From positions 160,308-224,307 of the forward strand of contig CBDETR010000004.1 of NCBI GenBank assembly GCA_965243045.1: DNA of 64,000 bases, read 5' to 3'. The notes beneath the pieces were generated by a model. It had not been told where the DNA came from and did no database searches. It saw only the letters and a program-made list of their open reading frames with translations. Within the stretch, counting starts at the first letter, position 1, and the number at the start of each line of letters is the position of its first letter. Both the position numbers and the translations under genes were made by a program. This DNA comes from Alphaproteobacteria bacterium. GTDB taxonomy: Bacteria; Pseudomonadota; Alphaproteobacteria; JABAAW01; JAHZMA01. Positions 3,243-50,504 of this stretch are shown piece by piece.

Positions 3243-3316
3243 TCGGAGTGGCAGGATTTGAACCTGCGATCTCTCGGCCCCCAGCCGAACGCTCTACCAA
3301 ACTAAGCCACACTCCG
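3243..3316 (-). tRNA. tRNA-Pro (anticodon GGG)
   Basis: The reverse complement folds as a cloverleaf: acceptor CGGAGTG/CACTCCG with C1-G72 (typical of tRNA-Pro), D arm GCTTAGTTTGGTAGAGC, anticodon stem TTCGG/CCGAG with loop CTGGGGG, T arm GCAGGTTCAAATCCTGC, discriminator A. CCA is not encoded. Confidence 0.85.
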
Positions 3317-7853: not shown

Positions 7854-8675
7854 TTAATCGTCTACTTTTTTGTTGTTGGCTTTTTGGTTGTTGCCTTTGT
7901 TGTCACTGGTTTTGTTGTCGCTGGTTTTTTTGTCACTGGTTTTTTTGTGATTGGCTTTGTTGCTGTTTCTTTTTTCACCGTTTTTACAGTTTCTTTTTTC
8001 AGTTTTTGCCGTCTCAGTTTTTGCCGTCTCAGTTTTTGCCGTCTCAGTTTTTGCCGTCTCAGTTTTTGATAGCGTTTTCTTTGCAGGAGTCGCATCAGCT
8101 GTTTTAACTGCTTCTGTTTTTACTGTTTCTGCTTTAACAGGTGTTGCTGAAGCCGGCTTTGCTTTCTTAACTTTTTTCGTAGTTGCTTCTTTTGTTACTT
8201 TAACAGGCGGGGTGCTTTCTAGCAAAGTCACTTTACCACCGGCTTTTTCAACCAACGCAATCGCAGATTTTGATGCTGCCGTTACCGTAATATTTAGTTT
8301 TGCTTTCAACTCACCTTTTGCAAGTAGGCGCAAATTACCTTCTCGGTTGCTAACCAAACCTGATAATTGCAATTCCTGCCGTGTAATATCTTTACTTAAA
8401 TCAATTCTACCCTCATCACTGGCGGTTTGAATTCTACCTAAATTGATAACAACCCATTTTTTCCGAGAAAGGCTGTTAAATCCACGCTTTGGCAAACGTT
8501 GATAAATAGGCATTTGCCCACCTTCAAAACCTTTGATGGATACGCCAGAACGAGACTTTTGCCCCTTCATTCCGCGCCCAGCAGTTTTACCCTTGCCAGT
8601 ACCTATACCGCGTCCAACCCGCATCGCATCACGAGTTGCACCTTTATTATCACGAATTTCATTCAGCTTCATCAC
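7854..8675 (-). CDS. rplO: 50S ribosomal protein L15 with ~110-aa lysine-rich repetitive C-terminal extension
   Basis: N-terminal ~155 aa is a canonical L15 ([24 protein letters not shown]...). The same ORF continues into the tail [44 protein letters not shown]...(TETAK)x4...(KTSDN)x3...NNKKVDD. Confidence 0.9.
8000..8059. repeat. perfect 15-bp tandem repeat x4 (cagtttttgccgtct) encoding the TETAK repeats of the L15 tail
   Basis: Four identical contiguous units with partial copies on both sides. An imperfect 15-bp periodicity also runs through 7908-7967 (KTSDN repeats). Confidence 0.9.
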
Positions 8676-30980: not shown

Positions 30981-31226
30981 TTTTCGAATATCTAGCCCTA
31001 TTCTATCATATTTTTGTATTTTTGGACTGAAAATTACAATTCATTCGTTGCAATTTGGGGATAAAATGCAGGAATTTGCATCTTTTTTTGATTATTTAAT
31101 AAAAAATCTTGATTTTTAATAATTTTATATTGCATTTGATTCGTAGCGTTTGTATAACTAATTAATCAAAGTTTCCAATATGATGATGAAACATCATATT
31201 TGTAAGGTTTTTTCCTCCCCAGACTT

Positions 31227-31260
31227 GGGTCGTGAGTTATTACGACCCTTTTTTTTATTC
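31227..31260 (+). terminator. intrinsic-terminator-like hairpin GGGTCGT-gagttatt-ACGACCC followed by TTTTTTTTATT, with no upstream plus-strand gene
   Basis: 7-bp GC-rich stem, 8-nt loop and T-run read from the sequence. It lies inside the track ORF's putative N-terminal extension, so it is more likely leader or small RNA. Confidence 0.45.
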
Positions 31261-31261
31261 T

Positions 31262-31302
31262 CTATATATTTTCCCCCTATATATTTTCCCCTATATATTT
31301 TC
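31262..31302. repeat. tandem repeat tatatattttcccc(c) x~2.7 immediately upstream of the ATG at 31303; C-tract length differs between units (5 vs 4)
   Basis: ctatatattttccccc tatatattttcccc tatatattttc ATG, read directly. Confidence 0.8.
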
Positions 31303-32478
31303 ATGCCTTCTTCTGACCTTACCAACTATCAACTTCAGCATTACTCAAAAATTAGCGACCTCAAAGAAGTTTGGCAAAAATTTACCGCTTCTTCGCAACA
31401 CCCCTTTTTAGATTTTCATTTTTTACATAGTTTAGAAATTACAAATTGCCTGAATGAACAAACAGGTTGGCATCCGCATCATCTTGCGCTTCAAAGTGAG
31501 ACTGAAGAAATGATTGCCCTCATGCCCTTTTATGTAAGGATGAATTCTTTTGGTGAGTATATTTTTGACCATGCTTGGGCACATGCTTGGGAGCAAGCTG
31601 GCGGGAATTATTATCCTAAATTATTATCTGCCATTCCTTTTACACCCATCACAGGGGAAAGGTTTTTAATTTCGCCCCAACACCAACATCAAGCGACTCC
31701 TATCAAACAGGCTTTTTTACAGGGAATTATCAAACTTACCAAAGATTATCAGCTTTCCTCTGCCCATATTAATTTTTTACCAGAGGTTGATATTTCCATT
31801 TGCGAGCAACAAAATTTTCTGATTAGACGTGATACACAATTTCATTGGGTCAACAATCATTATCAAGATTTTGATGATTTCTTAAATGCGCTGAGCAACC
31901 GTAAAAGAAAAAATATTCGTAAAGAACGGCAAAAAATTATCGATGGTGGTGTTGAGTTTCAAGCCTTAACAGCCGATGAGATTAAAGCATCTGATTGGGA
32001 CGCATTTTATCATTTTTATTGCGATACTTACGCACGCAAATGGGGCGTTCCTTATTTAACGCGCGCGTTTTTTGATGAACTACATGCAAGAATGGGCAAT
32101 CATATTGTGCTGATTATGGGTTATAAAGATGACCAACCCATTGCGGCGGCTCTTAATTTTTGTGATGAAAATCGCCTTTATGGACGCAATTGGGGATGCG
32201 ATATTGCCTATCCTTTTTTGCATTTTGAAACCTGTTATTATCAAGCGATTGATTATGCGATTGCTCATAAATTGCGCTATGTTGAAGCGGGCACACAAGG
32301 GCAACATAAATTAGATAGAGGCTATCAGCCCGTGACAACATTTTCAGCGCATTACCTTAATCATCAAGGGTTTCACGATGCTGTTAAGAATTTTATTAGC
32401 CATGAAACAGCCTTGCATGATGCCACCCAAACAGCTTTTGAAGAACATAGCCCATTTAAACAAAGTGATAAAAGTTAA
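31303..32478 (+). CDS. GNAT-fold FemAB-like / BioF2-like acyltransferase family protein (DUF482/COG3146-like)
   Basis: Conserved alphaproteobacterial hypothetical of about 390 aa. The start at 31303 (MPSSDL...) is preferred over the track start 31180 because 31180-31302 contains a terminator hairpin and a tandem repeat. Family assignment is from memory of sequence patterns (WHPHHLAL, GEYIFDHAWAHAW). Confidence 0.55.
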   Translation: MPSSDLTNYQLQHYSKISDLKEVWQKFTASSQHPFLDFHFLHSLEITNCLNEQTGWHPHHLALQSETEEMIALMPFYVRMNSFGEYIFDHAWAHAWEQAGGNYYPKLLSAIPFTPITGERFLISPQHQHQATPIKQAFLQGIIKLTKDYQLSSAHINFLPEVDISICEQQNFLIRRDTQFHWVNNHYQDFDDFLNALSNRKRKNIRKERQKIIDGGVEFQALTADEIKASDWDAFYHFYCDTYARKWGVPYLTRAFFDELHARMGNHIVLIMGYKDDQPIAAALNFCDENRLYGRNWGCDIAYPFLHFETCYYQAIDYAIAHKLRYVEAGTQGQHKLDRGYQPVTTFSAHYLNHQGFHDAVKNFISHETALHDATQTAFEEHSPFKQSDKS

Positions 32479-49754: not shown

Positions 49755-49922
49755 AGGTTACCTTATAAATTATTTTACAAAAAGATGCATCAAAATATCA
49801 CTCTATCCATAAACTATCTGCATTTTTTTGAATAATACTGAAAAAAGACTTAAATCTCAATGTAAAATAGCTTAAAAAGTAATAAATTTTCTGACAATCA
49901 ACTTCTTTGATAGAAGAGACTT

Positions 49923-50504
49923 ATGACAACCAAAAATGCAACATCTAATCGCGGGCAATCCCAAGCAGAATCCTCCCCAGAATCCCCCCCAGAATCCCCC
50001 CCAGAATCCCATGCAAAATTGAAGGGGCATATTGCGCTTTTTCAACCAGATATTCCGCAAAATACTGGCGCGATTATGCGGTTGGCAAGCTGTTTTGATA
50101 TGACCTTAAACATTATTGAACCATGCGGTTTTGTGTTTTCTGAAAAACAATGGAAAAGAAGCGCGATGGATTATGCCAAGAATTTGCATTTGAATCGCCA
50201 TGATGATTGGCAAGAATTTTTGCAATGGCGCGATGCTGAAACTGAAAAGAACCCTAAAAAGCGAATAATTTTATTTACCACAAAGGGCAATCATTGCTAT
50301 GATAATTTTACGTTTCAAAAAACTGATATTTTACTATTTGGCAGTGAAACAAAAGGTGTGCCTGAAAATGTGCATGAAATTAGTGATGCAACATTGGTGA
50401 TTCCTATGGCTAAATCTGCGCGTTCGCTAAATCTTGCCATGAGCGTTGCCATTGCAGTGGCGCATTTTAATAGTCAATTGCGGAAAGAAAATAACAATGA
50501 CTGA
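49923..50504 (+). CDS. trmL: tRNA (cytidine/uridine-2'-O)-methyltransferase TrmL (SpoU-TrmD fold), with repeat-containing N-terminal extension or leader
   Basis: The region from about residue 36 (GHIALFQPDIPQNTGAIMRLASCFDMTLNIIEP...) matches TrmL. The preceding 35 codons contain the PESP repeats, and the true initiation codon is uncertain. Confidence 0.75.
   Translation: MTTKNATSNRGQSQAESSPESPPESPPESHAKLKGHIALFQPDIPQNTGAIMRLASCFDMTLNIIEPCGFVFSEKQWKRSAMDYAKNLHLNRHDDWQEFLQWRDAETEKNPKKRIILFTTKGNHCYDNFTFQKTDILLFGSETKGVPENVHEISDATLVIPMAKSARSLNLAMSVAIAVAHFNSQLRKENNND
49965..50010. repeat. 12-bp tandem repeat (agaatccccccc) x~3.7 containing two C7 homopolymer tracts, at the 5' end of the trmL ORF
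   Basis: gcagaatcctcccc agaatccccccc agaatccccccc agaatccc, read directly. The minus-strand ORF with GFWGG repeats is its mirror artefact. Confidence 0.85.

Follow-up and report, generated by a model that had tools for sequence, protein, structure and literature searches.

An in-frame 12-bp tandem repeat in the predicted disordered N-terminal tail of a TrmL-like gene from an alphaproteobacterium

The trmL-like gene and its neighbors

The window analyzed here, a stretch of 64,000 nucleotides of alphaproteobacterial DNA, carries on its plus strand a trmL-like gene (49923–50504) whose ORF, profile matches, and PDB matches indicate a protein of 193 aa composed of a 35-residue tail and a SPOUT methyltransferase domain. 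The Pfam profile SpoU_methylase (PF00588) matched residues 36–179 with 107.2 bits (gathering score 29.7), and the SpoU/TrmL profile matches covered residues 36–190. Hence, 35 codons precede the domain, as the preliminary description of this DNA had stated. By far the best NCBIfam match was TIGR00185 (TrmL), with a score of 132.2 bits that lies under the equivalog cut-off of 190.6, and NF007683 scored 102.5 bits against a cut-off of 282.

Structural comparisons pointed to the same family. When the PDB was searched with phmmer, 16 of the 17 best matches were chains of the TrmL/YibK/CspR family (best E-value 4.5e-28); the top ten were TrmL, YibK, or CspR chains or unnamed homologues of the same structure family, the eleventh was an engineered circularly permuted TrmL, and the alignments started at query residues 33–37. 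The top 33 Foldseek matches also belonged to the TrmL/YibK structure family, with a TM to target of 0.75–0.93. The AlphaFold2 model, built with 63 homologues, had a mean pLDDT of 89.7. Its domain exceeded 90 and adopted an alpha/beta fold starting with strand beta1 at residue 36, and residues 1–35 were modeled as coil, with a block pLDDT of 57–71. Both the predicted fold and the best matches argue strongly for a TrmL-like tRNA 2′-O-methyltransferase; we keep the wording "TrmL-like" because the strict NCBIfam equivalog cut-off is not reached.

The literature describes TrmL as a SPOUT enzyme of minimalist type, ~150 aa long and free of extensions (PMC3763551). The window protein shares its domain and fold with TrmL/YibK, the 2′-O-methyltransferase of wobble C34/U34 in tRNA-Leu (Cm34/Um34; E. 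coli 4JAK/4JAL, H. influenzae 1MXI/1J85), but adds a lineage-specific N-terminal tail, encoded by codons 1–35 (49923–50027, plus strand) and predicted to be disordered from the AlphaFold2 model and the comparison with relatives; the corresponding tails of its clade relatives are 15–26 residues long. As modeled, the tail forms no folded extension domain, so the catalytic architecture is predicted to be still minimalist. A signal-peptide or targeting role of the tail was rejected on inspection, as the segment is polar and acidic, without a hydrophobic stretch.

Downstream, hemF starts at position 50497 and matches the oxygen-dependent coproporphyrinogen oxidase model with 351 bits (cut-off 297). 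Its start overlaps the trmL stop in the sequence ATGACTGA (50497–50504, plus strand). The trmL/hemF overlap noticed earlier is therefore present, and it is conserved in relatives: an 8-nt overlap between the two genes was also called in the loci L002, L006, and L007.

Upstream, a divergent intergenic region of 168 nt (49755–49922) separates trmL from nuoA, which lies on the minus strand. The conserved part of this region is the nuoA-proximal 125 nt. It holds a box, TAAATCTCAATG (49851–49862), that is invariant in seven loci and that coincides with the −35 element TTGAGA of the best promoter-like site found by a sigma-70 scan. As this site is on the minus strand, it probably serves nuoA.

The tandem array and its C7 runs

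Tandem Repeats Finder (TRF) delineated a 12-bp array at 49966–50010 on the plus strand, with 3.8 copies, 96% matches, a score of 83, and the consensus CAGAATCCCCCC. The array, which is also supported by pattern search and codon usage, corresponds to codons 15–30 of the trmL-like ORF and is translated in frame as A-E-S-S-P-E-S-P-P-E-S-P-P-E-S-H. Each unit reads GAA-TCC-CCC-CCA and encodes E-S-P-P, giving (E-S-P-P)n, with unit 1 differing by one C-to-T change; the flanks of the array resemble decayed units, as reflected in a period-24 row of the TRF output. A pattern search for the CAGAATCCCCCC unit gave three matches, all in the array. A mobile or dispersed repeat was accordingly rejected, the 12-bp unit being confined to one site within the 64-kb window.

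The array contains two C7 runs. The first (49984–49990, plus strand) spans the codons TCC-CCC-CCA, and the second (49996–50002, plus strand) is its duplicate in the next repeat unit. The repeat and both runs are thus located where the preliminary description had placed them, with a copy number of ~3.8. Elsewhere in the window, no run of C or G reaches seven nucleotides. Two C7 runs compare with 3.18 ± 2.58 expected from dinucleotide shuffles, and 71 of 100 such shuffles gave at least two. The tandem array is far above chance expectation; the C7 runs as such are within chance. Moreover, as copies of one repeat unit, the two runs do not represent independent events.

The array draws on the rarest Ser codon of the window, TCC (7%), and on its rarest Pro codon, CCC (18%). 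This choice of codons fits a mutational origin of the repeat better than a selected one.

Two further features were noted on the opposite strand. On the minus strand, the repeat contains the sole canonical G-quadruplex motif of the window (49975–50010), with 0.17 such motifs expected per window from mononucleotide shuffles. It is an automatic result of the C-rich repeat, and we attach no function to it; the DNA fold of the G-rich minus strand at the repeat gave z = +1.1. An antisense ORF (49872–50060; 62 aa, GFWGGFWGGFWGGF) was dismissed, since it mirrors the repeat and lies in a hypervariable region.

The clade-wide extension and the translation start

Among ~15 billion proteins, the exact window protein is the sole member of its 90% identity cluster, and the next relative is 66% identical. 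No second copy and no other strain of the species was found in the collections searched (proteins, genomes, metagenomes, and contigs). A protein-guided scan of GTDB returned one unrelated match from Oscillospiraceae (28% identity), and a protein-guided metagenome scan returned matches at 37% and 25% identity only. A gapped DNA pattern across the repeat had no match in the JGI metagenomes with a gap of 15–45 nt; the wild-type gap being 43 nt, this range would detect alleles that had lost up to two units or changed by one or two bases, whereas an allele with an additional unit would fall outside it.

The nearest relatives fall into two clusters, both of them from metagenome-assembled genomes (MAGs) labeled Alphaproteobacteria: cluster 2, with eight members of 165–175 aa, and cluster 3, with four members of 181 aa. 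The proteins P0004 and P0005 are more distant (56% identity). In all eight loci fetched, nuoC-nuoB-nuoA on the minus strand are followed by trmL-hemF on the plus strand, and the cluster-2 loci L006–L009 also match the window further downstream, where a small ORF and a cytochrome-c peroxidase gene are found.

An extension precedes the motif [HR]-[IL]-A-L-F-Q-P-D-I-P in 13 of the 13 clade proteins (the window protein and clusters 2 and 3). It is 15–26 residues long in the 12 relatives and 35 in the window protein, and the opening M-T-x-K is shared by the window protein and those of cluster 2. In contrast, P0004 and P0005, like most other homologues, open directly with M-x-x-[IL]-A-L. Neither the 12-bp repeat nor a homopolymer of at least five nucleotides occurs in the extension of the six loci examined (L002, L003, and L006–L009), and the remaining clade proteins, compared at the protein level, have no ESPP repeat. 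The comparison of orthologous trmL 5′ ends that the preliminary description had called for thus found the extension in 12 of 12 relatives, the repeat or a homopolymer of five or more in none of six loci, and a hypervariable sequence.

This hypervariability has sharp limits. In cluster 2, the domain is 91–99% identical in amino acids and the extension differs at most positions. Sliding identity between relatives, calculated in ungapped 30-nt windows, falls to 50–77% in a trough that opens ~60 nt before the ATG and closes at the domain boundary, and it is 90–100% on both sides; for the block as such, identities of 63–77% compare with 93–100% in its flanks. The closest pair, L008 and L009, shares 60% identity over 42 ungapped bases of the extension, against 85% at 4-fold sites of the same gene and 99% in the amino acids of the domain. 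We relied on this ungapped L008–L009 comparison and on the 30-nt profiles, since gapped identities of short extensions are inflated by alignment optimization. The extension sequence would thus appear essentially unconstrained, diverging about like non-coding DNA, with the reading frame alone being kept. In the L008–L009 pair the extension may even evolve somewhat faster than 4-fold sites, which is not a prediction of strict neutrality; few bases are involved, however, and the neighboring non-coding DNA varies to a similar degree.

The preliminary description had left the start codon ambiguous between an ATG at 49923, which places the repeat inside the protein, and a non-ATG codon after the repeat. 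Its observation that no in-frame ATG separates the repeat from the domain holds, with the correction that an in-frame TTG is present at 50019–50021. This TTG is residue 33 of the ORF and lies one codon upstream of the canonical TrmL start position. Translation from it would begin M-K-G-H-I-A-L-F... and yield a TrmL of ~161 aa, leaving the repeat in a 5′ leader or a short upstream ORF; both starts might also be used.

The sequences ahead of the two codons differ. The ATG is preceded by the purine-rich GATAGAAGAG (49909–49918), which ends 4 nt upstream of it and is part of an RBS-like element, GATAGAAGAGA (49909–49919, plus strand), ending 3 nt upstream. GATAGAAGAG resembles the GATAGGAA/GATAGAG motifs found ahead of several other long ORFs in the window, and the relatives carry AAGG or AGGA at the position matching the RBS-like element. 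Four-base SD cores were found upstream of 20 of the 56 long ORFs in the window, against a background of 7%. The TTG, in contrast, is preceded by CCAGAATCCCATGCAAAA, with no purine-rich RBS-like element. The position of a promoter is no guide between the two starts, because the sigma-70 scan found no plus-strand promoter-like site in the nuoA/trmL intergenic region.

For L002, L006, L008, and L009, four of the six loci with an extension, no in-frame ATG, GTG, or TTG other than the upstream ATG precedes the domain, so the extension there must be translated. From the ATG to the A of A-L-F-Q, the window and the six loci measure 111, 57, 81, 63, 51, 51, and 84 nt; the length differences are all multiples of three, and none of the loci has an in-frame stop over a total of ~150 diverged codons. 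If the segment were untranslated, at least five independent length changes would all have fallen in frame, with a chance that we estimate roughly at (1/3)^5. As the fixed length differences are all multiples of three, selection appears to act against loss of the frame. The spacing between the nuoA start and the trmL ATG is also nearly the same in the window (168 nt), L002 (170 nt), and L003 (169 nt).

Set against this, a start at TTG 50019 draws on its in-frame position, one codon before the equivalent of M1 in the H. influenzae and E. coli TrmL, on the in-frame ATG that L007 has at the canonical position and the in-frame TTG within the extension of L003, and on the fact that the extension evolves like non-coding DNA. 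The TTG has no RBS-like element where the ATG has one, four relatives offer no other start codon, and a segment whose length shifts by multiples of three and which acquires no in-frame stops is unlike untranslated DNA. We therefore regard initiation at the TTG, alone or together with the ATG, as unlikely, though the most credible of the alternatives considered here. ATG 49923 can be proposed as the translation start with moderate to good confidence, and the ambiguity is largely settled in its favor by the RBS-like element and the relatives. Translation of the repeat into a disordered N-terminal tag, one of the two options given in the preliminary description, is favored by the comparative evidence and by the coil in the AlphaFold2 model. 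The ORF from ATG 49923 predicts a protein with the N-terminus MTTKNATSNR... and peptides containing ESPPESPPESHAK.

If this reading is correct, its practical value is to set the start codon at ATG 49923 and to alert annotators that the TrmL of this alphaproteobacterial clade bears an N-terminal tail that is genuine yet unconstrained. It is a mild curiosity that an enzyme regarded as minimalist should have a hypervariable N-terminal tail throughout a clade.

Possible slippage and decoding roles and the probable origin of the tail

Because of its two C7 tracts, the repeat had been proposed as a candidate slipped-strand switch. Such a phase-variable switch would require that C7 changes frequently to C6 or C8, reversibly silencing trmL and the coupled hemF, with the two tracts allowing compensation. 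The frame arithmetic behind the proposal is correct, as gaining or losing one base in either C tract shifts the reading frame, and gaining or losing whole 12-bp units preserves it. The tracts are both near the beginning of the ORF, and a change by a single base yields a truncated product: a deletion in either tract leads to a stop after 32 residues (TGA, 50020–50022), an insertion in either tract to a stop after 58 residues (near 50096), and the frame is regained if one tract compensates for the other. Frame analysis further shows that the TGA reached after a −1 change overlaps the in-frame TTG in the sequence TTGA (50019–50022, plus strand), so that re-initiation, and with it a leaky OFF state, might be possible.

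The length of the tracts is marginal for such a role. PhasomeIt screens of Campylobacter applied a poly-G/C cut-off of 7 or more, the loosest published, which C7 just reaches; however, the same paper documents variability in tracts of at least 8 and notes that its cut-offs take in tracts with a mutability possibly <1e-5 (PMC6321876). The genome, called AT-rich in the preliminary description, is only moderately so (40.3% G+C in the window). The runs are not enriched in the window (2 vs 3.2 expected), both derive from one duplicated unit, a homopolymer of at least five is present in none of the six orthologue extensions, and the reading frame is conserved across the clade. Frameshifted or length-variant copies were found neither among the ~15 billion proteins nor in the contig collections.

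The comparison with known contingency loci leads in the same direction. Those of Campylobacter, Neisseria, and Haemophilus share with the window gene a 5′-proximal intragenic poly-C tract in which a one-base change truncates the product. The window tract differs from them in being absent from orthologues, in not being enriched, and in belonging to a housekeeping gene, and it sits in, and arises from, a 12-bp repeat that preserves the frame. Housekeeping functions such as tRNA modification and heme synthesis are atypical of contingency loci, and a literature search for phase-variable tRNA methyltransferases with homopolymeric tracts found none. We know of no phase-variable tRNA-modification gene, and a switch at this locus, if true, would be the first; it would tie stochastic switching to decoding and heme synthesis, and the switching subpopulations would decode Leu codons differently. 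Taken together, C7 runs that reach only the loosest cut-off, are not enriched, and have no counterpart in orthologues, in a frame kept throughout the clade, make the proposed switch very improbable. Slightly less probable still is that the tracts slip to useful effect, giving stochastic production of TrmL and HemF in a "translational phasevarion" with a leaky OFF state via the TTG, or that diversifying selection, rather than neutrality, underlies the clade-wide hypervariability of the tail.

A role in decoding was considered as well, and we judge it to be just as improbable as the switch. Here, the tail would act as a translational sensor or leader, in which the two S-P-P-E stretches, encoded with CCC-C, stall ribosomes or make them slip by +1 and so tune TrmL and HemF to the state of the translation machinery. 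The trigger would be limiting EF-P, on which diprolyl motifs depend, or limiting m1G37 in tRNA-Pro, and two CCC-C sites occur in the window gene, at codons 22 and 26. CCC-C belongs to the documented slippery motifs CC[C/U]-[C/U], which are prone to +1 frameshifting; in E. coli, up to ~1% is reached when the motif is located at the second codon (PMC4519876). A +1 ribosomal shift in the window gene would end at the TGA at 50020, which overlaps the in-frame TTG. However, the CCC-C repeat motif is absent from all 12 relatives, so the role would be unique to one genome, and both sites are away from the second codon, the most shift-prone position. Nor was a stimulatory RNA structure or a leader structure predicted: the RNA fold of 49895–50060 is less structured than its shuffles (z = +1.2), and Rfam, applied to the whole window, identified one tRNA only (3243–3316) and nothing at the trmL locus.

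Least likely of all is an assembly or sequencing artefact in which a homopolymer length or the repeat copy number was miscalled: homopolymers are error-prone on some sequencing platforms, and the sequence comes from one assembled contig with no second copy in the collections, but the frame is open through both C tracts and joins the conserved domain exactly, where one miscall would break it, the repeat units are otherwise clean, and the relatives independently carry extensions of comparable length.

We consider it probable, instead, that the tail is translated from ATG 49923, disordered, and unconstrained, that it grew by in-frame slippage, and that the C7 runs are a by-product of this growth. 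The proposed course of events would begin with the loss in this clade of the canonical ATG, which the outgroups retain in M-F-[SH]-[LI]-A-L-F, and with the recruitment of an upstream in-frame ATG located 15–35 codons before the canonical start. What was probably 5′-leader sequence would thereby have become a disordered tail evolving at an approximately neutral rate. In the lineage of the window, GAA-TCC-CCC-CCA would then have been amplified in frame by replication slippage to ~3.8 copies, roughly doubling the length of the tail. The C7 runs would have resulted from the copying of one C-rich unit rather than from selection for a switch, and translation would now run from ATG 49923 through the repeat and the SPOUT domain, coupled to hemF via the ATGACTGA overlap.

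The first of these steps, by which the tail was probably created, has the marks of start-codon migration. Where the outgroups have the initiating M of M-F-[SH]-[LI]-A-L-F, the clade has G, A, or S codons, and the clade ORF opens at an ATG further upstream, whose distance from nuoA is conserved. The ancestral state is taken from only two outgroup sequences, and the ATG at the canonical position in L007 may have been kept or regained. We infer, likewise, that the array arose by slippage, that the canonical start was lost ancestrally, and that the tail is functionally neutral. The feature is real and ordinary, most likely an in-frame coding repeat in the predicted disordered tail of an otherwise standard TrmL-like SPOUT enzyme, and the tail is most likely harmless and fast-evolving and probably not a genetic on/off switch. 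It would offer a small, clean case of a leader that turned into coding sequence and was then lengthened by in-frame slippage.

In its architecture, the array resembles other in-frame coding repeats in low-complexity tails, a kind whose usual hallmark is copy-number polymorphism between strains; it shares with them a period that is a multiple of three, near-identical units, decayed edges, and a location outside the folded domain, in a terminal segment predicted to be disordered. The window contains a second example in rplO (L15; 7854–8675, minus strand), whose C-terminal tail of ~120 residues carries perfect in-frame 15-bp repeats, with (TETAK)n and (K/N)KTSD as the encoded units. As rplO is another housekeeping gene, in-frame repeat tails are tolerated in this genome.

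Divergence at the 5′ end of trmL and start codons among relatives

In the sister cluster, a sharp divergence island of ~120 nt covers the trmL-proximal intergenic DNA and the N-terminal extension, with an identity of 50–80% in ungapped windows versus 90–100% in the flanks. Among the fetched loci of relatives that have the nuoA and trmL-hemF layout and the extension, the island was located at ~1438–1557 of L008 and at 1038–1152 of L007, both compared with L009, and at 511–576 of L002 compared with L006. For the closest pair (L008 and L009), the extension is 60% identical versus 85% at the 4-fold sites of trmL, although these values come from small numbers. The island might stem from recombination or diversifying selection rather than from pure neutrality, with the same caution on small numbers.

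One cluster-2 relative, L007, carries besides its upstream ATG an in-frame ATG (1135–1137) exactly at the canonical TrmL start (M-A-R-I-A-L-F), which indicates that its lineage has either kept the canonical start or gained it back. The TrmL of the window contains a 5-residue insertion relative to clusters 2 and 3, the nearest relative TrmL groups (RDAETEKNPKK against W-QKNKGK; residues ~105–113, ~50235–50260), and it shares with cluster 3 a 2-residue insertion that cluster 2 lacks (MAKSARS; residues 162–163, ~50406–50411). Hence, in-frame indels in TrmL are not limited to its N-terminal tail.

Sequence features in and next to the trmL repeat

The complement of the C-rich repeat, on the minus strand (the template strand of trmL), forms a G-quadruplex motif, (G3+N1-7)x4, at 49975–50010. 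No other canonical motif of this kind occurs in the 64-kb window, on either strand, and 0.17 were expected from shuffled sequences.

Next to the repeat, a mini-ORF of three codons (M-Q-N; 50011–50022) begins with an ATG at 50011 that is out of frame with trmL, and its TGA stop at 50020–50022 overlaps the in-frame alternative start TTG at 50019–50021, as TTGA. The same TGA would also be the end point after a −1 DNA change in either C7 tract or a +1 ribosomal slip. Re-initiation at TTGA (50019–50022) is a speculative reading of this arrangement.

A conserved box between nuoA and trmL

Within the nuoA-trmL intergenic region (49755–49922), the box TAAATCTCAATG at 49851–49862 is unchanged in all seven aligned loci (the window, L002, L003, and L006–L009). 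A sigma-70 scan of this region found no promoter-like site for trmL on the plus strand; the best sigma-70-like site, with 10 of 12 matches, lies on the minus strand, and its −35 element (TTGAGA) coincides with the box. The site is probably the nuo operon promoter.

Other tandem repeats in the window

The gene for ribosomal protein L15 (7854–8675, minus strand) encodes 273 residues, and the Pfam L15 domain extends no further than residue 150. The C-terminal tail of ~120 residues, rich in Lys, Thr, and Ala, is made of in-frame 15-bp tandem repeats (7865–7962, 7999–8068, and 8099–8138, minus strand), including an array encoding TETAK with 4.7 copies at 100% identity and another encoding (K/N)KTSD. 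Beside TrmL, L15 is a second housekeeping protein of the window whose terminal tail is expanded by repeats.

The 5′ end of a long ORF (31180–32478) carries a tandem repeat of 14 bp, CTATATATTTTCCCC (31262–31302; 2.8 copies with 92% matches), a period that three does not divide. The repeat is probably located upstream of the real start of this ORF, near MPSSDL.
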